A DNA stretch of 55,611 bases from a virus (taxonomy: Duplodnaviria; Heunggongvirae; Uroviricota; Caudoviricetes): positions 1 through 55,611 of IMG/VR virus record IMGVR_UViG_2778261256_000006. One strand, 5' to 3'. The notes under the pieces are model-generated. The model did not search any database and was not told the origin of the DNA. It worked only from the letters and a program-made list of their open reading frames with translations. The position numbers and the translations under genes are program-made. Positions 5,817 to 50,115 of the stretch are shown in pieces. The first letter of the stretch is position 1. Each line of letters begins with the position of its first letter.

Positions 5817-5997
5817 CCACTTCATCTACACTCGCGGCATTGGAAGCAAAGATATGGTCGTCTGGCACCTGATGCACATTGATAAGGCTATCAACCACAC
5901 GCTGGAGAAGTTCTTTCCACCAGCCTGAACACAATGATTGTGCGCCTTATAGCGCCCATTAAGATAGATAAGTACTTACCAACAAGGAGAAAACACA

Positions 5998-16822: not shown

Positions 16823-17638
16823 ATGTTTGAGGTAACTGCACACGCTCCCAGCACCACAGGCTTACATGCCAGGCCATCGATGACCAGTCAGGAGATCGCC
16901 GAAATGGTCGGCAGTCGCCATGACAGCGTAAAACGCACCATTGAAAGACTCGCTAAATCCGGCGTTATTACTTTTCCACCAATGGTGGAAAAGCCCACTG
17001 CCGGGCGTCCGGCTACGTTTTACTTGTTCGAAGCCGAACAGGGTAAGCGCGACAGTATCGTTGTCGTGGCACAGCTTTCTCCTGAATTTACCGCACGCCT
17101 TGTTGATCGGTGGAGAGAGCTTGAGTCCATGTTTGCCGACCGCGGAACGCCTGCTATTCCACGTACCTATAAAGAGGCTCTGGTTCATTTGTTACACCAG
17201 GTCGAGGAAAACGAGCGTCTGGAGAAAGAGAACGAAGCGTTAGGCGTTGCACTATCTAACGCAAAACCAAAAGCCATTCTCATGGACACCATTTGCGGCA
17301 CTGCTGATGAGCTTTATGGGCTGAATGAAGCTGGTCGCATTCTCGGCACGTCCGGGGCTGTTCTGGGTTCGCTGATGGACTCGCTGGGTGATGTGTACGT
17401 TAAGCGCAAATACACCACTGTTAACCGCCAGTTCCTCAAGATCTTCATTGACCGCGGATATGGCAAAAACGTTGTCATCGGAAACGGTCGCAACCAGGCC
17501 AAGTTCACCTTTAAAGGGCTTTGCTTTGCAGCTGTGAAACTAATTGCAGCCGGGTTGATTGCCTCCAGCGCCATTGAATATGAGCCGTGTCGTGAGCATG
17601 TCGAACGTGCAATGAAGGAATCCAAACGTCTTCATTGA
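16823..17638 (+). CDS. Rha-family phage regulatory protein / antirepressor-like
   Basis: N-terminal Rha-like segment (SMTSQEIAEMVGSRHDSVKRTIERL), C-terminal antirepressor-like region; true start may be ATG 16880. Confidence 0.65.
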   Translation: MFEVTAHAPSTTGLHARPSMTSQEIAEMVGSRHDSVKRTIERLAKSGVITFPPMVEKPTAGRPATFYLFEAEQGKRDSIVVVAQLSPEFTARLVDRWRELESMFADRGTPAIPRTYKEALVHLLHQVEENERLEKENEALGVALSNAKPKAILMDTICGTADELYGLNEAGRILGTSGAVLGSLMDSLGDVYVKRKYTTVNRQFLKIFIDRGYGKNVVIGNGRNQAKFTFKGLCFAAVKLIAAGLIASSAIEYEPCREHVERAMKESKRLH

Positions 17639-18936: not shown

Positions 18937-20622
18937 ATGAATACAGCCCTTTCCATCATTGACGCTATCACTCCAAACACTGATATCGACTACCGGCAGG
19001 AAATGAACGTTATCCACGAAATTGTGGCCGAGTGCGAGAAAGAGATCGCATTCATGCATCAGGTTCACGACTTCGTTTATGGCGACGAACGCCACAGCAT
19101 GATTAACCGTCTGCTGCGACTCAACCACCGGCCGGATGACGAGCGCACACGCTTTAACAGAGCCTGGTTGGACAAAGTCGACCTGGAATGGGTGAAACAG
19201 AACATCTGGGCTGAATACTGGAAGAAGGTCACGGATATGACCAACGTTCTGCTGATCATGCCAGCATCCCGCCGCGACGAGTGGCGTGAACAGTTTATCG
19301 AGGGCAAGCAGGAAACGATCAAGACTGACAGAACTGGCTATCAAATGAAGGTTAAAGAGTTCGTTGGTGTACCTGAGTTCAAAGCAGAAACGGTCATACC
19401 AACGATGCTTAATTTGCTGAATGACAGGCACAAATATCTCTCTGAGCGCGTGTATGGCTTGTTTAAGGCGTTGAGTCCTGCTCACAAGACCAATAAGACG
19501 AACGGCTTCAGCGAGCGTCTGATCATCGCCGACTGCATTTCCGATTTCTGGCGGGACAGCGTCAGCGTTAACTACCGGAAAGAGGATTACATAGACGACC
19601 TGCGCGTCATGTTGCATTTCTTTGCACACAAAGAATTTATCACCATCAACCGCACGGCCGAGATGCTGTCAGCTGCGTATCGAGCAAATGACTGCCAGAC
19701 CGGCGACTGGATGAATGTCGACGGAAACCTGATGCGTGTGAAGATGTTTAAGAACGGCAACGTTCACTTTGAAATACATCCTGACGTAGCCTGGAAGCTG
19801 AATGAGGTGCTGGCTTACAGTATGCCTGCAGCAATCCCGGCGCCATGCCGTACTGCACCCAAAACACGGGCACCAAAAGAGTTCGGGTTAATCCAGAAGA
19901 CGATCTCCGAGCCGGTTCGTACCGCGCTGCGCGACGGGCGATTCAGCAAAGATAAAGGCGTCTGGTACTTCTCTGATTCCAACCTCCAGAAGTCGCAGGT
20001 GGAAGAGCTTGAGCGCACACTGAACTTCATTGGCGGCGTGCAGGAGAAAAAGCACTGGCAGTTCCCGTATGAGATCGGCCATACGCTCAATACGATTGTG
20101 GCCACCGGCTTAATACCGGATACAAAATCACACCAGTTCTACCCTACCCCGCGTTTGATAGCGGAGTACGTTGCCAGAGCCATCGAGCTGAAGCAAGGTG
20201 AGAAGCTGCTGGAGCCTGAAGCCGGGCGCGGAGATCTGCTGGCCTGCATCGACGCCAATCCGGAAGACGTTACCTGCATAGAAGTCGCACCTCTCTTCGC
20301 TGATATCCTGCTTGGCAAGGGGTACACAAATACGGTCTGCTGCGACTTCATGAAGTGGTCTGAGGACAACGCAGGTTATCAGTTCGACAAAATCGTTATG
20401 AACCCGCCCTACTCTCTTGGCCGTCACAGAGAGCATACGCTGGCCGCGCTGGAGCATCTTAAAGTCGGCGGGCGACTGGTGGCTGTATTGCCTGGTGATG
20501 CGCCAGTTCTGAACTGGATGTCGCTGGATAATTACGTTTATGCCAAAGGGAAGTCGTTTACTGACGAGTTTGAAGACACCGGGATTACTGTCAGCGTATA
20601 CGTTTTTAAACGCGTTAAATGA
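18937..20622 (+). CDS. DNA N6-adenine methyltransferase (orphan) with large N-terminal domain of unknown function
   Basis: C-terminal SAM-binding motif I (LEPEAGRGDLL) and catalytic NPPY (VMNPPYS); about 380-aa N-terminal extension; no cognate endonuclease adjacent. Confidence 0.75.
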   Translation: MNTALSIIDAITPNTDIDYRQEMNVIHEIVAECEKEIAFMHQVHDFVYGDERHSMINRLLRLNHRPDDERTRFNRAWLDKVDLEWVKQNIWAEYWKKVTDMTNVLLIMPASRRDEWREQFIEGKQETIKTDRTGYQMKVKEFVGVPEFKAETVIPTMLNLLNDRHKYLSERVYGLFKALSPAHKTNKTNGFSERLIIADCISDFWRDSVSVNYRKEDYIDDLRVMLHFFAHKEFITINRTAEMLSAAYRANDCQTGDWMNVDGNLMRVKMFKNGNVHFEIHPDVAWKLNEVLAYSMPAAIPAPCRTAPKTRAPKEFGLIQKTISEPVRTALRDGRFSKDKGVWYFSDSNLQKSQVEELERTLNFIGGVQEKKHWQFPYEIGHTLNTIVATGLIPDTKSHQFYPTPRLIAEYVARAIELKQGEKLLEPEAGRGDLLACIDANPEDVTCIEVAPLFADILLGKGYTNTVCCDFMKWSEDNAGYQFDKIVMNPPYSLGRHREHTLAALEHLKVGGRLVAVLPGDAPVLNWMSLDNYVYAKGKSFTDEFEDTGITVSVYVFKRVK

Positions 20623-23656: not shown

Positions 23657-23663
23657 GCCAGAT

Positions 23664-23684
23664 AAGGCCACTATTTGTGGCCTT
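23664..23684 (+). other. hairpin AAGGCCAC..GTGGCCTT (repeated element, copy 1)
   Basis: Inverted repeat after the stop; related copies at 29538 and 30009. Confidence 0.5.
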
Positions 23685-24102
23685 AAACAATTTGTTTAAT
23701 TAGTGGTGTAATTATTGGAATCCCAGGCGAACTAAATCCATTGGGCAGAACAGATCTTCCACACCTTCGATAGACACGCAGTCAGAGCGGCGTAATTGTT
23801 CTTCTGATTTGCCTTCCCCACTGATTTCTCTGATTACTCCCGTTGCGCCATTCATTGCCACCATGACATGGCTGCCGATAGTGATAGCATTACGGTTTCG
23901 ATCATACGTCTTTATCGTTTCCTCCTTTCACATGGGGCAAATCAGGTTTCAAAAATTGCCGTTTTCCATGTATATGCGATTTGCAAAATATCAATTTCCT
24001 AAACAAATTGTTTTCACCCGCTAGTTATTACACACAGGCGAAGTTGACCGCGCTTCATATAAATATCACTGTCTATACATACAGTGTATAAGGGGAAAAA
24101 AA

Positions 24103-25650: not shown

Positions 25651-27150
25651 CGGCTGCAACTCGTTGACATTGGCGGTCACAAATTGAGGATTTCTATAAG
25701 AGTCCGTTGATCGCCACTTCCCCCACCTCTCCAACCTACCCCAGCCCAGGGGTGACAAGGCATTTAAGCCAATTACACCCATAAGAAAACAAATAAATAA
25801 CACGTCAACGAAAAGTCAACGCTTTCCTCTGATTTGGTCTAAAAAGTTGACGTTTTCGCAAGCCATCTCTTATACCCAAAATCCTGCGCACCAGAATCCA
25901 TCTCCCTGCGACCAAAACGTCAAAAACGACTCGTGATATCACTCAAAAACAGAAGCGCTCAGAAGCGCTCCCGTTGCGTTATATTGGGCATCTAAACAAG
26001 TTGTTTTCAGGAATAAGAAAACAAGTTAACAACCCCCACAGGAAACCCAGAGACGCCATTACCCACAATCCCGGAAACACCCACCTCTTCCTGTCAGACT
26101 ACCGAAAAGACCCACCTCATTGCCCCAGGCTACAGACCACCCACCTAATATTCCCAGGCAACCGAGAACGCGGTTCGCACGCGCAAACCCCGATACGTCA
26201 TTACCCAATACACGGAGAAGAACAGCCAGAACGAAACCCCGGACAAACCCAGACAAGAACAGGAGCCGTCACAATCTCGTTTACCCACCATTACCCCGAA
26301 AGAGAGCGCAAATTCCTGAATAGCAGGGAACGCCATTACTTCATATGCGGAGAACAACTAAAGCGCCCTACTGCCATTACCCACACTTTCATCATTTCAC
26401 GTAAACGAAGAGAAAAGTGCACCTGCCATTACTCCATACACGGAGAAGAACACTCACCAAAACGACGAGAACAACCCAGACGAAAACACAGAGAAGAACC
26501 ACCTCAAGAAGAACGAAACCACATATGCCGGTAGAAAGAACAAACCACCCATTTCACCCAAAGGAATACTCGCCGTATAGAGCGTTATCAGAGGGAAGGT
26601 TTGTGCCCACATAAGAGAGAAAATTCGTGGGAGGTATAAGTGGGAAGGGAAGGAGGGGTATCGCTACTTTCTCCGTATAAATTCAAGCCATAGTTTTCGT
26701 CCCCCGTAACGTCCCTTTCCACCCCTTCGGTCAGCCTTCGGGCCATCCAGGGAAAAGGCTGGAGGTTTTCAGGGAAACGGTGGGAATCCCGCTATACGAA
26801 CCGGGAAAAGCTGGCTGCCGGTCGGGAAACGGGTACATCCCGGTACAGAGCGAGGGACGACTGCGGGAGCGGTGCGGGAAATCTTCGGGAGTGCGCCTTG
26901 CTCTTCGCTCGCCTGAAAATCGCGAGGGAGTGTCGTTCCCTCTCGTGCAGCTGCTGAACTCCATTCTGCCAGACCATCCTCGGGTCTCAAGCGATTTCAG
27001 TAGGTTTTCGGGGAGAAGAAAATTCTGCCCACCAGCCCTGCGGCGCGCGTAGAGCAGAATATCGTAAATACTGGTTCCCGTGTCGTTCCCGGATATTCAC
27101 TGCCCAGCCTGGCTTTCACGACATAAAATCCTTTTTCGCCTTTGTCTTAT
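25650..27150. repeat. 1.5-kb non-coding stretch rich in degenerate short direct repeats
   Basis: No convincing ORF (only low-complexity frames); repeated CGTCAACG/CGTTGAC, CCATTAC..ACGGAGAAGAACA (x3), CCACC-rich and GGGAAAHGG units. Confidence 0.55.
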
Positions 27151-27217
27151 TGCGACAATAACACCAACAAGTAAACAACATGTTTAGACGTTATATAAAC
27201 GAAGTGAGGATGAAGGG

Positions 27218-27436
27218 ATGATTAAGATGCCTGTGACGGTTGAGGTGTGGGGCGTGGATTCCCTGGCTGAGTGTCTGGATGCAGTGGGGCCGGAGTTGTA
27301 CCGCAAGTTGTGGTCGTTCGTCCCGGCAGAAGGGGAATCGCCCAAAGGGAAGGATATCTGGCACCTGCTTAGTGAAGATGAAAAGCGGGAGCTGGTGGAC
27401 GCGGTACACAGCGAGTTCCCGGACGACGAAGATTAA
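27218..27436 (+). CDS. small acidic hypothetical protein
   Basis: 72 aa; preceded by GATAAT plus operator-like palindrome. Confidence 0.5.
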   Translation: MIKMPVTVEVWGVDSLAECLDAVGPELYRKLWSFVPAEGESPKGKDIWHLLSEDEKRELVDAVHSEFPDDED

Positions 27437-27575
27437 GAGTGAGACCACCAGCACGGTGGCTTTTGTCGCTATTAACCTCCGGGGCAGCGCAGCACCGTAA
27501 CGATATACTTTGTGGCCGTTTTCTTACTGGTATTGTTTACGCAATTCAGAAAACAACATGTTTAAGGATTGCTTT

Positions 27576-27905
27576 ATGTTTGCAAATATCGACATCAACC
27601 AAATCAAGAAAATGACTCAAAAAGAGTTTGACCAGTTTTATGAGTTAGAAGGTTGGTCTTCCACGCTGATCAATTCGCGCTGGGTGCTTGAGCTGATGAC
27701 TCGTGATGATGCTCCTGCTTTGATTATTTGCGACATGGGTGAAGATGCTGACTTTATGGATATGAGCGAATTTTGTGTGGACACATACAACCGCAGCCAG
27801 AAGTACTACTTCACATGCGATAGCGAGAATGACGTGATTTCTAAGCTCTATCTTCACCTTGTCCAGCATTGGGACGTGCAGGAATTCCTTGAGTTATTCG
27901 CGTAA
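27576..27905 (+). CDS. small acidic hypothetical protein
   Basis: 109 aa; AAGGA RBS directly after the operator-like palindrome. Confidence 0.5.
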   Translation: MFANIDINQIKKMTQKEFDQFYELEGWSSTLINSRWVLELMTRDDAPALIICDMGEDADFMDMSEFCVDTYNRSQKYYFTCDSENDVISKLYLHLVQHWDVQEFLELFA

Positions 27906-28065
27906 GCCCAACCAAAGCCAGCACCGCCTGCTGGCTTAACTTCTCTGTAGCCGCAGGGCTGAACCACCTTTAGATAATTCATGTGCCTGAGCAATATGCT
28001 TTGTAGCCGTTTTTACACTGGTATTATTTACGCCATTGAGAAAACAATTTGTTTACGGAGTGGTG

Positions 28066-28377
28066 ATGAATACTTCATTGGTGCTGGGTCTTGCTGAAGG
28101 CCAGGAGAGAAAAGAAAAACCAACCTTAATGGGGCATCTCACATTGCTGGATATCGTAGCGAATGGGACTTCTATCCGTCTGTTTCGTGAAAAAGCCATT
28201 ACCTTCGACGCGGGCAATTTTACGCGCTATGTGATGGTAGTTCGTCGCCAGCGTGGAAGAGGGTGGATGTCGGTCCAGAAAATGTGGCCAGAGGACCAGC
28301 TTGAACTGGCGCTGATGGAAGCCAACCGTGTCGCCCAACAAGAGATCCAACGAGCGTCTGTTCAGGCGGTAGCTTAA
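28066..28377 (+). CDS. small hypothetical protein
   Basis: 103 aa; operator-like motif then RBS; followed by a terminator. Confidence 0.5.
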   Translation: MNTSLVLGLAEGQERKEKPTLMGHLTLLDIVANGTSIRLFREKAITFDAGNFTRYVMVVRRQRGRGWMSVQKMWPEDQLELALMEANRVAQQEIQRASVQAVA

Positions 28378-28411
28378 ACATGTGCAAGCAGTAGTTAGTC
28401 GACCCTACGAC

Positions 28412-28440
28412 AGCCCCGTCCATCCTTCGGGGCTTTTTTG
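28412..28440 (+). terminator. rho-independent terminator
   Basis: AGCCCCG..CGGGGCT hairpin followed by TTTTTT. Confidence 0.65.
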
Positions 28441-28498
28441 TATTGTAAGTACTTACTTATGATAATAAAATTAAAAATTAAACACTAAGGAGAGTGAA

Positions 28499-28894
28499 AT
28501 GACCGTTAAACGCGAAAATCTGACCCTGGATATGTATTATGCATCAGAGACGGAAAATGGAGACAAAGTTGCAAAAATTACAATTGTGCTACGCGATAAT
28601 GCCTCCGGCGAAGAAGTTCACACCAGTACCTTAACTCGCACCGGCGAGGCGACAAAGGGGAAATATTCGGTGCGTTACCAAAGCATCAGTAATGCTTCTG
28701 ACCCTTTACTGATAAAACTGGAAACTCATTTCCGTGGCGCGGATCAGACGTTGTTTGAAAATTTGATGAAAAAGGTCGATACGGTTTATACATCGAGTTT
28801 AAATACCAATAGTACCTGGATGGGACAACACGGTCTGCGAATAATCTCCGGCGAAAAGATCGACACCATTGTCCCTGAAAGCGTATTCGCTTAA
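28499..28894 (+). CDS. hypothetical protein
   Basis: 131 aa; preceded by the GTAAGTACTTAC palindrome and AAGGAG RBS. Confidence 0.5.
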   Translation: MTVKRENLTLDMYYASETENGDKVAKITIVLRDNASGEEVHTSTLTRTGEATKGKYSVRYQSISNASDPLLIKLETHFRGADQTLFENLMKKVDTVYTSSLNTNSTWMGQHGLRIISGEKIDTIVPESVFA

Positions 28895-28903
28895 TCCTCT
28901 TTG

Positions 28904-28930
28904 AATGGCGCGTATCCCGCGCCATTTTCT
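28904..28930 (+). terminator. rho-independent terminator
   Basis: AATGGCGCG-TATCC-CGCGCCATT followed by TTCTT. Confidence 0.6.
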
Positions 28931-29011
28931 TATCCCCGATAACAAAATGTTTTCTGCCTTATCTGATTTGTGAAAATGATTTCACTGAAGCAACTTAATA
29001 AGGAAACCATC

Positions 29012-29386
29012 ATGGGACTTGATATCTATATCGAGACGCAGCCTAAAAACGATCTGAATAACGAGGCATCCAGAAAGCAGGTTGCTTACTTCCGTAAGTT
29101 CAATGCGCTCGTTGGGTGGATGGAGCGCAACGTAGGTGAAGTCGAAAATTGTGAGCTTTTAGAATTAACGATGAATGACATTTGTTTTCTGAAGGCTCAT
29201 TTGATGCACATAAACGAAAGTAATTGCGAAGAGTACTTGCCTACCCAGGAAGGTTTTTTCTTCGGCAGTCAGGAGTACGATGAAGGTTACTGGCATGATG
29301 TGGGGGAGTTGAAAGAGATTGTGGAAGATCTGATTAAGAACCACGACTTTCACAATAATAGACTGACCTTCTGCGCCTGGTGGTAA
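29012..29386 (+). CDS. hypothetical protein
   Basis: ORF 28970-29386; ATG 29012 (MGLDIYIE) is the more likely start. Confidence 0.45.
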   Translation: MGLDIYIETQPKNDLNNEASRKQVAYFRKFNALVGWMERNVGEVENCELLELTMNDICFLKAHLMHINESNCEEYLPTQEGFFFGSQEYDEGYWHDVGELKEIVEDLIKNHDFHNNRLTFCAWW

Positions 29387-29722
29387 ATATGGGCGATTTC
29401 AAGAAACGCCTGAAGGAGAGAGCCGAGATGGTCAGAAAGCGAAACGCCTCTTCTGTCATAAGATACGCAAGGCAGTTTAGTCGCAACAACAAATCAGTTG
29501 AGGAAAAGATCCTTAGCGTAATCGGGCGATAATTATTAAGGCCACCAGCATTGGTGGTCTTAAATGACTTTTAATAACCGAAGGTTAGTTTAAAACCTGG
29601 CTATCAACTTCCAGAACCTTTCTTGTGTATTCAGCCTGTATTAACTTCTTTTATGCCTTATCTACACTGCGATAATTACACCAACAAGAAAACAATATGT
29701 TTACGCAGTGAGGATATGCTCA

Positions 29723-30003
29723 TGACTGATTTCACCATTACCCCTAAAGCACAAAATGTATTCCTTGAATCATGGCTGGACTTGCCGGAAACAGAACAGC
29801 AAGAAATGGATCATGTGGAATATGACGAGCAGGTAAGCACGCGATTCTTCCACTTTGAGGGCTGCGTTTACGACATTGCCGACTTCATGCGAGATGACCG
29901 CTTCCCTGAATGGCACGCAAGCTATCCACTAAACGCCTTCGCCATGCTGATGATCCGTGTGGATGATTCAGGGGATACCATCGACATCGGTCTGCTCCAC
30001 TAA
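29723..30003 (+). CDS. small acidic hypothetical protein
   Basis: 93 aa; GATAAT plus operator-like palindrome upstream; followed by a hairpin. Confidence 0.5.
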
Positions 30004-30207
30004 AGAGTAAGGCCACCAATGCTGGTGGCCTTAAATGACCATCCTGTTTCCCGCAGGCTAAAAACACCAACCTCTTACCTCTAGGCAACCGACAAACCCA
30101 CCTGTTCCCGTCCGGCTACCGCAACTTTCCACTTTGACGCCTTATTCGTACAACGATAATTAACACCAACAAGAAAACAATTTGTTATTTACGATAAGGA
30201 ATTAATC

Positions 30208-30690
30208 ATGAATTTTATCGCTACTGTAAACGCACCCGCACATGGCAATATCGCTGTAACGTTCTCTGACATTGAAAAACGAGTACTTGGTGCATGGCGC
30301 GACAATGAGACGGTAGAACTGTCAGCACAAGAAAAATGCATTATTGCACGCGACATCATTGGCAATCGTCGTTACTCGCGGGTATTTGAGAAAGCATATG
30401 TGGTAAATTCTGGATTCGGAACGTTCGTCTTTCCGGTGCGCTCCGGGCGATTCTGCCAGTCCAAGCTGATTGAGTTCGCTACGCAGATTTCTGTCTGGAT
30501 TAAAACTCAATCGTCGTTCAAATTTTCCGACGATGAAGCAGTATCGCAGGGGATGCGGATCGCCAACAATGCAATAAAATACAAAAACATTACGTATGCC
30601 GCTGGCGTTGACACATGGAAACTGTTTTGCGCTAACTTTATGCTGAATGTATACGCAAGCAACCGCATCCACATCCTTGATGGCGTGTAA
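30208..30690 (+). CDS. hypothetical protein
   Basis: 160 aa; GATAAT plus operator-like palindrome upstream; followed by a terminator. Confidence 0.5.
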   Translation: MNFIATVNAPAHGNIAVTFSDIEKRVLGAWRDNETVELSAQEKCIIARDIIGNRRYSRVFEKAYVVNSGFGTFVFPVRSGRFCQSKLIEFATQISVWIKTQSSFKFSDDEAVSQGMRIANNAIKYKNITYAAGVDTWKLFCANFMLNVYASNRIHILDGV

Positions 30691-30696
30691 CTGAGA

Positions 30697-30722
30697 AGAG
30701 GGCCAGAAACGGCCCTTTCTCT
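30697..30722 (+). terminator. rho-independent terminator
   Basis: AGAGGGCC-AGAAAC-GGCCCT followed by TTCT. Confidence 0.55.
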
Positions 30723-31313
30723 ATAGCCACCAGCTGCCGCAGGGAAATTTTCAGAAACGGCGAGGAACGCATTCATGAGCCGACGGGAAACGGCCAAGAT
30801 TTTTTCGGGAAACGGCGGGGGTCGCCTTTATGTAGAAAACTGAGCGGGAGAAACCCGGAATCGCGCCAGAAATTGCGTAGCGGCGCTGGGGTAGCGCTGG
30901 TGGGGTTTCAGCCCCTGGGCCATCCAGATAGCTTTCGCTATGTGATTATGTGAATCCGTGGGTAAATCACTGTAAGCGCGTACACGTTGCCCAACGTGGC
31001 GATCATATGCGAGCGGATACAAAACAACACAAAGAGCCGATCCGCGCCGACAAATAAACGCGGATCACATAGCAAGACTAAAAGCCAATGATTAACCATA
31101 CTCTATAGCGCAATATAACGCGTTTTAAGCGCGTTAATGTGTTAAGTAATGGGTATGTACTGACAAGGATATAAAAGCGCGTCTATGGCGTTATTTTGGT
31201 GCTTATTTTTATGTTGTTGGAGTGAGTTAAAGACAATAAAAAACGCGCCAATGATGGCGCGTTATGGTGGGAGTATTGGAAACGAAAAAAGCGCCCATAG
31301 TGGGCGCTCGATT

Positions 31314-32566: not shown

Positions 32567-33094
32567 TTAAAACGGTAAAATTCGTTCGACCCAATCGAAC
32601 ATGGCGACTGTCTTCCTACCGTCCCCCATGTTGAGTGTGACCTGACAAGCGTCAACGCCTCTTGACACCCCTTCTATTTCACGACCGTCCGCCATGTAGA
32701 CCCTTATAGACTTCTGCATCTCATGAGCCTGGCGACAAATTTTGAAGAAATCACGGCGAGATGGCCGATTGTCCACATAGTCTGGGTGTACCGTTGTCCG
32801 ACCCGTGAAGTCGTGCGCAATGCCTTCTGTCACACCTGATTCAATCGTGCTGATTCGCTCAAGTGGGAGCCTTATACGATTTTCTTTGTCGAACGGGGCA
32901 GGGCAAAGGTCGACTTTGTTGCGAGACGACATGAGACCCTGAACGTACATGCAGAACACCTGACCATCTTCCATCGTGACCCTTACAGGAATGAGATACT
33001 TACGCCAGAACATCAGCGCCTTCTCCACGTTGGTGTAATCGCGCGGCCAGACTTCTGCAGGAATCCCGTAGGTGATGTCAGTAATATTCGTCAT
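32567..33094 (-). CDS. hypothetical protein with two similar internal segments
   Basis: Last gene of the helicase operon; start may be 33136 or 33094. Confidence 0.45.
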   Translation of the reverse strand: MTNITDITYGIPAEVWPRDYTNVEKALMFWRKYLIPVRVTMEDGQVFCMYVQGLMSSRNKVDLCPAPFDKENRIRLPLERISTIESGVTEGIAHDFTGRTTVHPDYVDNRPSRRDFFKICRQAHEMQKSIRVYMADGREIEGVSRGVDACQVTLNMGDGRKTVAMFDWVERILPF

Positions 33095-33098
33095 ATCG

Positions 33099-33521
33099 TC
33101 ACAGTGTCGTTGGTAAGATATCGATGTCACCAGCATTACTGGTGAACACCCGGAAGACTTTCGTCTCGCCAGCTTTGGTAATCGTCTCGCGTTCCTGACG
33201 AGCAGGATTCAGTGCGCACAGCCCAGCGTCTTCGAGTGAGGCGCCAACAATCCATTCTCCGGCATCCAGATGAAAAGTGACTTTTTCACCTGTTTCCAGT
33301 TTTGCAACGGTTTCGCCATTGATGAAGATCGATGCGTCGCAACCGGCGCCCACCATGCTTTTATCTCTCATAACCACCAGCGTCGATGCCGCCGGAGATT
33401 GGTATTTGAATATTCTGGTCTGCGGTGCTGGCTTTGCCTCAGAGACAGGAATAGGACGAGATTGACATGCAGTGATAAGTAACGCGGAGGCAGCAACCAG
33501 AGGAAGTAATACGTGTTTCAT
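33099..33521 (-). CDS. lipoprotein (signal peptide with lipobox)
   Basis: MKHVLLPLVAASALLITAC: lipobox LITAC. Confidence 0.55.
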   Translation of the reverse strand: MKHVLLPLVAASALLITACQSRPIPVSEAKPAPQTRIFKYQSPAASTLVVMRDKSMVGAGCDASIFINGETVAKLETGEKVTFHLDAGEWIVGASLEDAGLCALNPARQERETITKAGETKVFRVFTSNAGDIDILPTTL

Positions 33522-39745: not shown

Positions 39746-40999
39746 ATGACCATCCCGTCGTCTCTGAGTCTCGTACAGCTGCATTCTGGGCAGATGCAAG
39801 TCTTCCAGTCGCCACATCGTTTCAAAGTGGTGTGTGCGGGTCGACGCTGGGGTAAATCCCGGTTGTCGATCTCCACCATCATCCGCGCGGCAGCCAAAGA
39901 GAAGAAGCAACGTGTCTGGTATGTCGCACCGACTTACCAGATGGCTCGCCAGATCTTGTGGGATGACCTGCAGGAAGTTCTGCCGCGCAAATGGGTTCGT
40001 AAGAAAAACGACACCACGATGACCATCGTGCTGAAGAACGGCTCTGAAATCGCGCTGAAAGGTGCGGATAAGCCCGATACGCTTCGTGGTGTGGCACTGC
40101 ACTTTGTGGTGCTCGATGAATTTCAGGATATGAAGCCTGACACCTGGTACAAGGTACTGCGTCCGACACTGTCCTCCACCCGTGGCGGTGCGCTGATCAT
40201 CGGTACGCCAAAAGGCTTCTCCGAGTTCCACAAGCTGTGGACTATCGGTCAGAACAAAGATTTGCAACGCAAGGGGCAGTGGAAGAGCTGGCAGTTCGTT
40301 ACGGCCGATTCTCCGTTCGTACCGAGCGCGGAAATCGAAGCAGCGAAGAACGATATGGACCCTAAATCGTTCGCACAGGAATACCTGGCCAGCTTCGAAA
40401 ACATGTCCGGACGCGTTTACTACCCGTTCGACCGCAATGTGCATGTGAAGCCACTCCAGTTCAATCCGAAACTGCCGATCTGGGTTGGTCAGGACTTCAA
40501 CATCGACCCTATGTCATCGGTCATCCTGCAACCGCAGCCAAATGGTGAACTGTGGGCTGTGGACGAATTGGTGTTGTTCTCTTCTAACACGGCTGAAGTG
40601 TGTGACGAGCTGGAGCGTCGATACTGGCGCTGGAAATCTCAGGTCACTATCTTTCCTGACCCGGCAGGTGCGTATCGCCAGCACGCACGCGGCGAATCTG
40701 ACGTCGACATCTTCAAAGAGAAAGGTTTCCTTCGAGTCGATTATCCGAAGAAGCACCCGCCGATCGCAGACCGTGTTAACGCAGTGAACCGCATGTTGAT
40801 GAGTGCCTCGGGCGAAACCCGGTTGTACATCGATCCGAAGTGCAAACACCTCATCGACTCGCTGGAGAAGGTGATCTACAAGCCAGGCTCACGCGATATG
40901 GATAAGACTGGCGGCATCGAACACAGTGCGGATGCGTTGGGTTATCCAGCGTGCATCGTCGCTGGGGACTGCGTGGGCGCCTTGGGCATCTGGAAGTAG
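39746..40999 (+). CDS. Terminase large subunit (TerL)
   Basis: Walker A (VCAGRRWGKS), Walker B (HFVVLDEFQD), C-terminal RNaseH-like nuclease region. Confidence 0.85.
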   Translation: MTIPSSLSLVQLHSGQMQVFQSPHRFKVVCAGRRWGKSRLSISTIIRAAAKEKKQRVWYVAPTYQMARQILWDDLQEVLPRKWVRKKNDTTMTIVLKNGSEIALKGADKPDTLRGVALHFVVLDEFQDMKPDTWYKVLRPTLSSTRGGALIIGTPKGFSEFHKLWTIGQNKDLQRKGQWKSWQFVTADSPFVPSAEIEAAKNDMDPKSFAQEYLASFENMSGRVYYPFDRNVHVKPLQFNPKLPIWVGQDFNIDPMSSVILQPQPNGELWAVDELVLFSSNTAEVCDELERRYWRWKSQVTIFPDPAGAYRQHARGESDVDIFKEKGFLRVDYPKKHPPIADRVNAVNRMLMSASGETRLYIDPKCKHLIDSLEKVIYKPGSRDMDKTGGIEHSADALGYPACIVAGDCVGALGIWK

Positions 41000-46400: not shown

Positions 46401-46912
46401 TGGCGGCCGGATATCCAACAGCGTATGGAAATATCATTCACCTGAAAGGGATGACAGCCGTTGGCGAAGGTGAGTTACTCATCGGCTGGAGTGGTACAAG
46501 CGGTGCTCATGCTCCGGCATTTATTCGTTCACGACGGGATACGACCGACGCAAACTGGTCGCCGTGGGCGCAGCTTTACACCTCGGCTCATCCTCCTGCA
46601 GAGTTTTATCCAGTCGGTGCACCAATCCCGTGGCCATCAGATACCGTTCCGTCTGGCTATGCCCTGATGCAGGGGCAGACTTTTGACAAATCTGCATACC
46701 CGAAACTTGCAGTTGCTTATCCGTCAGGCGTGATCCCTGATATGCGTGGCTGGACGATTAAGGGCAAGCCCGCCAGTGGTCGGGCCGTATTATCTCAGGA
46801 ACAGGACGGCATTAAATCGCACACCCACAGCGCCAGCGCATCCAGTACGGATTTGGGGACGAAAACCACATCGTCGTTTGATTACGGCACTAAATCTGGA
46901 CAAACTTCTTAA
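43403..46912 (+). CDS. Tail tape measure protein, C-terminally fused in frame to a tail-fibre collar-like fragment
   Basis: 1169 aa; coiled-coil-rich, Gly-rich stretch ([18 protein letters not shown]); final about 150 aa carry a tail-collar-like motif ([49 protein letters not shown]). Confidence 0.75.
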
Positions 46913-49057: not shown

Positions 49058-49090
49058 TACGACAATAATTCACGCAAAGGAAACTCACCA

Positions 49091-49756
49091 ATGACCAAGA
49101 TCATTGTGGTTGGCGGCACAAAAGGCGGCCCAGGCAAATCTACCGTTGCCCAGCAAATTGCGGTATGTCTCAAAGTTAAAAAGAAAAAGAAGGTTCACGT
49201 CACCGATATCGATATCCAGCGCACCACGACCAGCTGGTGTGAAGACCGTCGCCAGAACGAAGATCTTGAACTGATCCCGTTCGCTTATGTGCAGGACGAC
49301 ATCGTCAAACATCTTAAATCGCTTCAGGGGCGAACTGATTATGTAGTGGTAGATGCTGGTGGCTTTGACTCCGAAATTCAGCGTCTGGCGATGCTTATGG
49401 CTGATGTAATCATCATCCCGCTGCGCCCTAAACGTCGTGATTTGAAATCTCTGCGTGATATCGACCCGATTATCGACAACGTTCGCAATGTGAACGAGAA
49501 AGTTAAGATCCGCGCGGTAATAAACCAGTGTCCGTCATTGCCTTCCCAGGTATCACGTATTCTGGCCGCGAAGGAAATTGTCGAAACTTTCGGCATCGAG
49601 GCTGCGCCGGTCAATCTGTACAACCGTAACGTTTATGACGATGCAGAAGAGGCTGGACGTTCTATCTTTGAAATGTCAGGCGCTGAACGCGATAAGAAAG
49701 CAGAAGCCGAATTTGGAGAGTTAGTAGATTACATCTTGAGTCTGGAGGAAGAATAA
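49091..49756 (+). CDS. parA: ParA-family partition ATPase
   Basis: Deviant Walker A (GGTKGGPGKST); 221 aa; followed by an overlapping small DNA-binding protein gene. Confidence 0.85.
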   Translation: MTKIIVVGGTKGGPGKSTVAQQIAVCLKVKKKKKVHVTDIDIQRTTTSWCEDRRQNEDLELIPFAYVQDDIVKHLKSLQGRTDYVVVDAGGFDSEIQRLAMLMADVIIIPLRPKRRDLKSLRDIDPIIDNVRNVNEKVKIRAVINQCPSLPSQVSRILAAKEIVETFGIEAAPVNLYNRNVYDDAEEAGRSIFEMSGAERDKKAEAEFGELVDYILSLEEE

Positions 49757-50115
49757 TGTCCATGAGAATGGGAGACCTTGCAAAGCGCAATGAGCCTAAA
49801 GAACCGGCCAAAAGCAGCACTCCACTGCGCCAGCCAGTCAGACCGCAGGGGCGTCCGACTCGTGGCAAAGAGAAGATTAAAAGCCGCACAATGTCGCTGG
49901 AAGACGAGTACTTCGAACTGTTGGAGATGATGAAGTTTATCCCTCGTTTTGAGAAGTTCACCCGTTCTGATGTGATTCGTGCAGCCATTTTCCATCTGGC
50001 AGAGAAGTCACCGCAGGAAATCGAAGACATCGTGAAACTGAACGAGGCGATCACTGCTGCCGACGTCACGATGCGTACCGACGAAATCAAACGAGAGTTG
50101 ATGAAGAAAGGTTAA
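49756..50115 (+). CDS. small partition protein (ParG/ParB-like centromere-binding protein)
   Basis: 119 aa, basic N-terminal tail; start overlaps the parA stop (TAATG). Confidence 0.6.
   Translation: MSMRMGDLAKRNEPKEPAKSSTPLRQPVRPQGRPTRGKEKIKSRTMSLEDEYFELLEMMKFIPRFEKFTRSDVIRAAIFHLAEKSPQEIEDIVKLNEAITAADVTMRTDEIKRELMKKG

Follow-up and report, generated by a model that had tools for sequence, protein, structure and literature searches.

The question raised by positions 27150-30722 of the viral record IMGVR_UViG_2778261256_000006 is why seven small genes in a row, called g1 to g7 here, should each be furnished with a promoter, a palindrome and a hairpin of their own. The initial annotation of this DNA took such individually regulated small acidic proteins to be typical of the places where phages hide anti-restriction, anti-CRISPR or other anti-defence genes. 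We analysed the whole stretch of 55,611 nucleotides (the window), which is part of an SSU5/pHCM2-type temperate phage-plasmid of Escherichia coli since it resembles SSU5, Cyrano and related plasmids in nucleotide sequence and gene order. The reading that we favour, at somewhat better than an even chance, is that the array forms part of a repressor regulon that extends over the whole of this SSU5-type phage-plasmid.

Six of the seven genes are preceded by the 13-bp palindrome AAACAANNTGTTT, which we call op1, and g4 is preceded by a second palindrome, op2. Both accompany sigma-70-type promoters. Thus, the earlier proposals that every gene lies behind a palindromic motif and has its own operator-bearing promoter are borne out. 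When up to one mismatch is allowed, op1 has 34 strand-matches (17 sites) in the window compared with 1.68 ± 1.43 in shuffled sequences, and no shuffle comes close to the observed number. The palindrome is embedded in a longer conserved module, TTTnnnGCCTT-N-TGnGATAAT-AACACCAACAAGA-AAACAANNTGTTT-A, which is followed by a Shine-Dalgarno sequence and an ATG codon.

All array promoters are on the plus strand. The promoter-operator of g1 (27151-27185) comprises the extended -10 element TGcGACAAT (27151-27159), the conserved 13-nt spacer AACACCAACAAGT and op1 in the form AAACAACATGTTT (27173-27185). The same form of op1 is found before g2 (27551-27563), where the module spans 27528-27563 and begins with TGgTATTGT (27528-27536). 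The g3 module (28019-28054) has TGgTATTAT (28019-28027) and op1 as AAACAATTTGTTT (28042-28054), and its 83% identity to the g2 module over 69 nt indicates a duplicated promoter. Before g6 (29652-29702) there is a duplicated -35 segment, TATGCCTTATCT, followed by TGcGATAAT (29668-29676) and op1 as AAACAATATGTTT (29690-29702). The g7 promoter-operator (30134-30187) combines TTGACG (30134-30139), GATAAT (30155-30160) and op1 with one mismatch, AAACAATTTGTTA (30175-30187). An extended -10 (TG, one further base and a -10 hexamer with A2 and T6) is therefore present at g1, g2, g3, g5 and g6, and g7 lacks the TG but has the TTGACG -35 element. An earlier picture of g5 must be corrected, because its operator is of the upstream type. 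The g5 promoter (28940-28977) has op1 as TAACAAAATGTTT (28940-28952) overlapping the -35 element GTTTTC, an extended -10 of TGtGAAAAT (28969-28977), and no operator close to position +1.

The same geometry recurs in 82 related loci, which provide 207 oriented op1 sites. A -10-like hexamer is located 13 or 14 nt upstream of op1 in 197 of the 207 cases and reads GATAAT in 143 of them, the TG extension is present at 154 sites, and the first ATG lies 10-24 nt downstream at 163. From this arrangement, op1 is predicted usually to cover approximately positions +7 to +19 of the transcript. Of 63 pairs of op1 sites that are close together, 59 have a spacing of 51 bp, and the upstream copy lies over the -35 element. 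This spacing corresponds to five helical turns, which suggests that binding to paired sites is cooperative. The information content reaches 2 bits at TG, GATAAT, AAACAA and TGTTT, while the flanks are variable. The op1 consensus is conserved in SSU5 and in Klebsiella elements, and the site is carried in front of g7, g3 and g5 in 82%, 76% and 92% of related loci, respectively.

Sites are not confined to the array. In the window, op1 also precedes a gene for a Rha-like winged-helix protein, a gene for an unknown 190-aa protein, a DUF4942/N6-methyltransferase gene, two small genes together with a DUF5983 gene, a 1.1-kb non-coding stretch, a terS-like gene, parA and a DnaB-like helicase gene. The 99%-identical IncFIB plasmid pTB212 (110 kb) has 18 op1 sites. 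This dispersal over the whole phage-plasmid is what makes the array appear to be one section of a global regulon. Within IMG/VR the promoter-operator module is restricted to SSU5-like viral contigs (88 stretches), and no description of SSU5 operators or repressors, or of the op1 and op2 motifs, was found in the searchable literature.

The 3.65-kb array region shares 99-99.8% identity with many E. coli plasmids, which range from 52 to 231 kb, compared with 92.8% for phage Cyrano and 76.6% for Salmonella phage SSU5. It matches 770 plasmid records from Klebsiella, Escherichia, Enterobacter, Yersinia and Salmonella, and the E. coli relatives of 106-110 kb are typed IncFIB. Compared with pTB212, the window copy is missing about 5.6 kb at 40943-40959 (the end of terL, the portal gene and the scaffold/capsid gene) and about 13.8 kb of tail genes at 46415-46887. 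The best matches are the 69.9-kb plasmids CP057716 and CP057895. The window element is a defective, plasmid-locked phage-plasmid derivative, and its array is intact. SSU5/pHCM2-type phage-plasmids deserve attention because they are common in E. coli, Salmonella (including Typhi), Klebsiella and Yersinia pestis (relatives of pMT1) and spread resistance genes.

The gene that lacks op1 appears to be wired differently. In the g4 promoter (28438-28466), 17 nt separate TTGTAT from GATAAT, and this spacer is occupied by op2 as a perfect palindrome, GTAAGTACTTAC (28445-28456). With up to two mismatches there are 10 op2 sites in the window compared with 1.2 expected, located at 5968, 10333, 15763, 20626, 28445, 31153, 35471, 41877/41881 and 51189, and the motif is often extended to GATAG-GTAAGTACTTAC-CTATC. 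Among 72 related loci, op2 precedes g4 in 99% and op1 never does. There are approximately 25-30 op2-like sites in pTB212, where they stand before structural, ParB-like and replication operons and before a homologue of the Cyrano 'putative repressor'. Through op2, g4 would be wired to a second regulator. The motif may be a master immunity operator or a middle/late promoter element.

Expression data are available for the orthologous genes of a Cyrano lysogen from RNA sequencing. In LB medium, the orthologues of g2 to g7 have 6-25 normalised reads with a background near 10 (CYRAN_105-108, CYRAN_110 and CYRAN_111 all fall within this range), and inside macrophages they rise about 4-20-fold (PMC9928086). 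The g7 orthologue, at approximately 2.7 times background, stands above its neighbours, and CYRAN_109, the orthologue of a short open reading frame (ORF) behind g5 called g5b, is 6 times above the lysogen background while g5 itself is not (PMC9928086). Only CYRAN_109 passes the authors' 5-fold cut-off, and the array orthologues were not listed by them as morons (PMC9928086). In the same study, ciprofloxacin increased Cyrano virions 39-fold (PMC9928086). The expression pattern agrees with repression in the lysogen and with inducibility of these genes. An internal promoter could account for the signal of CYRAN_109, as could a stable 3' fragment protected by the hairpin.

The seven ORFs match RefSeq gene calls in pTB212, RefSeq and ENA calls in relatives coincide with them, and the ratio of nonsynonymous to synonymous substitution rates (dN/dS) is 0.06-0.34 in comparisons with SSU5, Klebsiella pJN2-26 and Cyrano, as expected under purifying selection. 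The genes are therefore real. Their positions and their sizes of 72-160 aa stand as first described apart from the start of g6, which moves from 29723 to 29722. However, the description of all seven as monocistronic does not hold strictly for g5, which has the coupled 47-codon g5b behind it. All are encoded on the plus strand. Four proteins are strongly acidic, as had been claimed for several: g1 (27218-27436; 72 aa, isoelectric point (pI) 4.3, net charge -11), g2 (27576-27905; 109 aa, pI 4.2, -13), g5 (29012-29386; 124 aa, pI 4.6, -13) and g6 (29722-30003; 93 aa, pI 4.1, -15). The g4 protein (28499-28894; 131 aa, pI 5.9) is near neutral, and g3 (28066-28377; 103 aa, pI 9.8) and g7 (30208-30690; 160 aa, pI 9.2) are basic, as is g5b (29389-29532), which is joined to g5 through TAAATATG. 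The most diverged members are g3 and g4, with 38-75% aa identity to relatives, and g4 diverges fastest (38-63%). The g1 protein is 93% identical to its SSU5 orthologue, with a dN/dS of 0.16.

None of these proteins has a recognisable motif, as the first description also had it. Searches of the seven against Pfam, NCBIfam, PADLOC and PDB sequences are empty, and PHROGs assigns each of them only to a family of 'unknown function' (phrog_6757 for g1). No export signal or membrane segment is seen in the seven, judged by reading the sequences without a predictor. The g6 family is limited to SSU5/pHCM2/pMT1-type plasmids, where it is frequently mislabelled 'ABC transporter', a label that we consider to be a mis-transfer. 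Single-sequence and profile searches of 5.8 billion proteins confine the homologues of g6 and g7 to enterobacterial phage-plasmids of approximately 100 kb and return no functional names. Three other candidate assignments were rejected. The match of g2 to potato multicystatin among PDB sequences (expect value (E) 3.7e-5) is built up from three matches of 5-10 bits to a repeat protein, none of which has an independent E below 11, and both the PADLOC match of g6 to Dsr1 (E 0.021, 10.5 bits) and the matches of g4 to CRISPR-associated PDB sequences (E 0.27-0.37) are noise.

Most genes were said to be followed by a hairpin, and this was an underestimate. All seven have one, with predicted folding energies of -12 to -21 kcal/mol, and the region from 25.5 to 31.5 kb has 19 terminator-like sites compared with 6.4 ± 2.7 expected. 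A clear U-tract is found only after g1, g3 and g4, a weak one occurs after g5b, and there is none after g2, g6 and g7. The g1 terminator (27445-27466) is formed by the hairpin CCACCAGCACGGTGG and a CUUUUGU tract, the intrinsic terminator of g3 (28412-28440) by AGCCCCG...CGGGGCU followed by UUUUUU, and that of g4 (28903-28935) by a 10-bp stem (-15.6 kcal/mol, z -5.1) followed by UUUUCUU. The hairpin after g2 (27915-27937) has 9 G+C-rich base pairs. After g5b there is a 12-bp hairpin, TTAAGGCCACCAGCATTGGTGGTCTTAA (29536-29563), and the 11-bp hairpin after g6 (30008-30033) is a near-copy of it that has no U-tract on the plus strand. The g7 hairpin (30693-30721) has a folding energy of -17.7 kcal/mol and a z score of -4.1. 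A hairpin family of the form (A)AGGCCACCA-N3-4-TGGTGGCCT(T) recurs at 23660-23684, 27442-27462, 29536-29563 and 30008-30033 and ends several cassettes. Its copy at 23660-23684 directly adjoins the op1 site at 23685. This family may be a shared terminator, a stabiliser or a protein-binding element.

The array is also mosaic. In 78 related loci anchored on g7, the genes g3-g4-g6-g7 form a backbone (g3 is present in 72 loci and g7 in 76), and g2 and g5/g5b are accessory, with g2 found in E. coli-type arrays only. The SSU5 array has the order x-g1-g3-g4-g6-g7 and lacks g2 and g5, that of Klebsiella pJN2-26 is x-x-g3-g4-g6-x-g7 with a 72-aa gene in the g1 position that is only 9% identical to g1, PhiR41_1 lacks g6, and in Cyrano g1 is replaced. 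Two op1 sites, one distal and one proximal, belong to the g6 promoter of SSU5. In the window the g5-g5b cassette is flanked by two copies of the 12-bp -35 segment TnTGCCTTATCT, and this position suggests that g5 combines the distal operator with a -10 element of its own, leaving g6 with a copy of the promoter and the proximal operator. A direct fusion of g5 to g6 by TAAATATG is seen in Klebsiella- and Salmonella-type arrays. In E. coli-type arrays it is g5b that begins at this junction, and the first codons of g5b (M-x-D-F) repeat the start of g6. Recombination within conserved promoter and start regions would account for this shuffling of cassettes. The g5b gene itself looks like a recombination scar that has turned into an ORF. 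In some related viral contigs (L161, L165 and L155), genes for Ivy, an inhibitor of vertebrate lysozyme, and for other secreted proteins are located in or just upstream of the array, which indicates that the region also hosts lysogenic-conversion cargo.

These features could be combined as follows. Each cassette would consist of an extended -10 promoter recognized by host sigma-70, op1, a small gene and a hairpin or terminator as insulation. A predicted dimeric repressor encoded by the element would occupy op1 once the plasmid state is established and keep the genes almost silent. Perhaps, when the DNA enters a cell that is free of repressor, or when SOS or other stress causes derepression, host RNA polymerase would fire all cassettes at once. 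The products might then serve as establishment or host-takeover factors. The acidic proteins g1, g2, g5 and g6 would most likely be decoys that bind host DNA-binding or defence proteins, and the basic proteins g3 and g7 may bind nucleic acid. Cassettes would be gained and lost by recombination inside the conserved promoter-operator sequence. If this model is correct, op1 and op2 provide a testable wiring diagram that indicates which promoters are silenced together, where repressors should be sought and how cassettes are swapped.

There are precedents for such an arrangement. In the Kor regulon of the IncP plasmid RK2, the KorA operator GTTTAGCTAAAC and the KorB operator TTTAGCSGCTAAA control trfA, incC-korB and the kil loci, and the latter include klcA, an anti-restriction gene of the ArdB type. 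Like op1, these operators are compact palindromes of 12-13 bp located at a dozen or more sigma-70 promoters across the plasmid. They join replication, partition and small establishment genes in a burst upon entry that is then shut down, and op1, which fronts dnaB, parA and the array, would do likewise. The systems differ in operator sequence, op1 has no linked homologue of KorA or KorB, the present element is a phage-plasmid, and op1, for which the repressor is only predicted, usually lies at +7 to +19 and in some cases has a partner 51 bp further upstream. A second precedent is the C1 repressor of P1, whose approximately 17 operators are scattered over a phage-plasmid genome. One immunity-type regulator acting on many separate early promoters of a plasmid prophage, rather than on a pair of divergent operons, is common to both pictures, and the operator count is similar to that of op1 and op2 in pTB212. 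However, the operators of P1 are 17-mers that lack symmetry, unlike the palindromic op1 and op2, the SSU5-type element has two dispersed motifs, and there is no sequence relationship.

Several observations weigh against this interpretation, or against the role that it gives to the array products. Because op1 also stands before parA and dnaB, which a plasmid needs continuously, it may serve homeostatic damping rather than an on/off switch. A domain search of op1-linked and neighbouring proteins for the op1 repressor finds only a Rha-like winged helix-turn-helix protein, an FljA-like protein and ParB-N proteins, and none of these is decisive. The candidates for the repressor are the Rha-like protein (16823-17638), g7, g3, a ParB-like partner protein of 119 aa (49756-50115), the homologue of CYRAN_45 and the FljA-like protein. 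The window element has lost its portal and capsid genes and most tail genes, so the array cannot act there during an infection. The searches for anti-defence families that had been proposed as a check give no sequence match for any array protein. No known anti-defence genes are found among the alternative cassettes of the 78 related arrays, which are only Ivy, IS200, rve transposases, DUF5983 and SMC fragments. The backbone is kept across Escherichia, Salmonella and Klebsiella under strong purifying selection, g6 has homologues in Y. pestis, and the turnover of this backbone is below that of typical counter-defence loci. In the family of g5, the residues D4, R28, K29, N31, GFFFG, Y89 and Y93 are near-invariant, and such polar and aromatic positions look more like a ligand-binding or active site than the surface of a DNA mimic.

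One alternative is that some members regulate the phage-plasmid itself, either in the decision between lysis and lysogeny or plasmid mode or as the op1/op2 repressor. We consider this unlikely, although it survives better than the other alternatives. The best candidates are g7 and g3, the basic proteins that are also the most conserved in presence. An op1-controlled gene that encodes the op1 repressor would amount to classical autoregulation. The elevated lysogen signal of the g7 orthologue is in line with this possibility, as is the mismatch in the E. coli-type g7 operator, which would be expected of a leaky autoregulated promoter, and the regulon already includes the Rha-like winged-helix protein. 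However, no helix-turn-helix or ribbon-helix-helix family is detected in any array protein, domains of the OmpR type usually bind direct repeats rather than a compact palindrome, and the strong acidity of four of the seven proteins makes them unlikely DNA binders.

It is improbable that op1 is something other than a repressor operator, such as an activator or antiterminator site, an RNA element of the 5' untranslated region that is bound by an FljA-like protein, for example, or a centromere-like site of the ParB/KorB type with a secondary effect on transcription. Its position in the predicted 5' untranslated region, 10-24 nt before the start codon, is compatible with an RNA element, and the gene for a strong homologue of FljA (PF03614, E 1e-94) lies at a distance of 2 kb. 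FljA of Salmonella acts on the fliC mRNA leader. The centromere-like variant can draw on the op1 site before parA and on the two ParB-N proteins encoded in the window, and KorB of RK2 is a precedent for a protein that is both ParB and a global regulator acting through a 13-bp palindrome. Nevertheless, the only RNA structure open to the palindrome, an A/U-rich stem of 5 bp with a loop of 3 nt, is not credible. Some copies lie over the -35 element and thus outside the transcript, and we have rejected an op1 RNA hairpin on these grounds of geometry. The fixed distance of 51 bp, about five turns, argues for DNA binding and cooperativity, and low expression of the orthologues in the presence of a resident element fits repression rather than activation.

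Phage morons are units of promoter, gene and terminator in lambdoid prophages that are expressed from the repressed prophage. The array cassettes resemble them in having their own promoter, one small gene, their own putative terminator and a mosaic distribution, which is the textbook moron layout. They might therefore confer a fitness trait on the lysogen, such as lysogenic conversion or the exclusion of phages or plasmids, instead of serving entry of the phage-plasmid. The presence of the periplasmic lysozyme inhibitor Ivy in or beside the region in relatives, the expression of CYRAN_109 in the lysogen and the survival of the array at 99.8% identity in a defective, plasmid-locked element would all agree with this. 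Even so, we give this explanation the least chance of those considered, as the orthologues other than that of g5b are at or near the lysogen background rather than expressed from the repressed prophage, each promoter has a repressor-type palindrome at +7 to +19 that appears designed for silencing, and the seven proteins show no export signals or membrane segments on the reading described above.

If the favoured regulon model is accepted, there remains the proposal that anti-defence genes are hidden here. The regulatory half of this proposal is supported, since the genes have their own promoters with palindromes, belong to a temperate phage-plasmid and have orthologues expressed near background, while the evidence for its functional half is circumstantial. 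Structure prediction had been suggested as a test, and for the two proteins modelled it provides no convincing structural match. The g7 protein yields a confident AlphaFold2 model without a neighbour in the PDB. For g5, the AlphaFold2 model has a mean predicted local distance difference test score of 96.8, and its Foldseek match to DMP12/YfbM is not significant. DMP12 of Neisseria is a DNA-mimic protein (PDB 3w1o; PMC3643605). The g5 protein has no sequence or profile similarity to DMP12 or to E. coli YfbM (1ryl), as a search of PDB sequences with the g5 profile gives no link to either, and the motifs of the g5 family are not reported for DMP12.

This family is large and acidic. It comprises 2539 representative clusters from phages and other mobile elements. 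Its members share an invariant N-terminal MGLD, YWRKxN and GFFFG motifs and a C-terminal W, their median net charge is -12, and 92% of them have a pI below 5.5. Relatives of g5 are encoded in 566 of 600 candidate IMG/VR stretches, while a tblastn search of cultured phages with g5 and the family consensus finds only 7 SSU5-type records and adds no annotation. In 60 diverse viral contigs, the neighbours of distant homologues are mostly DUF932, DUF4192, L5 gp82-like and dUTPase/DCD genes, with single cases of RadC, SSB, Lar and a C5-methylase. This is the company of a mobile-element early region and is weakly suggestive.

Transient expression of anti-defence genes upon entry has parallels. The anti-restriction genes of IncN and IncW plasmids are controlled by CUP and ArdK. 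Plasmid leading regions contain anti-defence islands (PMC11541004). The array shares with these systems a run of small, same-strand and often acidic genes with a repeated promoter element, for which transient expression on entry is predicted here, and the orphan methyltransferases that are co-regulated there have a counterpart in the DUF4942/N6-methyltransferase gene behind op1. It differs in having no single-stranded DNA (Frpo) promoter and no conjugation, and the ArdA, KlcA/ArdB, PsiB, SSB and Acr families were not found in searches of the array. A high net negative charge, as expected of DNA mimics, is a property of g1, g2, g5 and g6. Conversely, a dedicated anti-defence island would not be expected to share op1 with parA, dnaB and the terS-like and Rha-like genes. 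The circumstantial evidence makes an anti-defence role plausible for the acidic members, above all for g5, and we regard a real role of this kind for at least one member as possible but not probable. A bolder proposal, which we consider doubtful, is that two undescribed palindrome regulons run SSU5-type phage-plasmids, that the op1 array is an exchange site for new counter-defence or host-takeover proteins, that the g5 family with a DMP12/YfbM-like fold is a widespread new class of DNA-mimic or decoy inhibitors, and that g7 has a new fold. In any case, the array offers seven or eight small proteins that could be screened for anti-defence or host-takeover activity, and g5 opens onto a very large uncharacterised family with a confident structural model.

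Other features of the element are of interest. The DUF4942/N6-adenine methyltransferase-like protein (561 aa, 18937-20622, plus strand) is encoded directly behind an op1 promoter (18912) and is a candidate for a self-protecting, anti-restriction methylase that is co-regulated with the array. In pTB212, a complete type I restriction-modification system is inserted beside the copy of this gene. The FljA homologue (32567-33136, minus strand), a relative of the repressor of phase-1 flagellin, is conserved in SSU5, Cyrano and Klebsiella relatives, and it could serve to control the flagellin of the host, or it could regulate the element by binding to RNA leaders. A tRNA-Lys(UUU) called by ARAGORN at 49079-49159 (minus strand) overlaps the start of parA and an op1 site. 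It is probably a false positive, as there is no Rfam tRNA match at the gathering threshold, and an Rfam scan of the whole window likewise returns no match.

In the non-coding stretch at 25994-27100, an op1 site is followed by approximately 560 nt of A+C-rich and G+T-poor DNA with three copies of CATTACnCAATACACGGAGAAGAACA and then by G-rich DNA over approximately 500 nt. The stretch contains no credible ORF and has no match in Rfam, and its predicted folding is worse than that of shuffled sequences (z +1.7). It is conserved at 67-89% in 75 of 82 related loci and may be an unstructured op1-controlled transcript or an element that acts at the DNA level. The sequence GGGAAACGG has four copies in the window, all on the plus strand and two on each side of the array (26731-26832 and 30785-30927), and TCAGCCnnnGGGCCATCCAG is likewise present on both sides. 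Thus, the array is bracketed by related G-rich segments.

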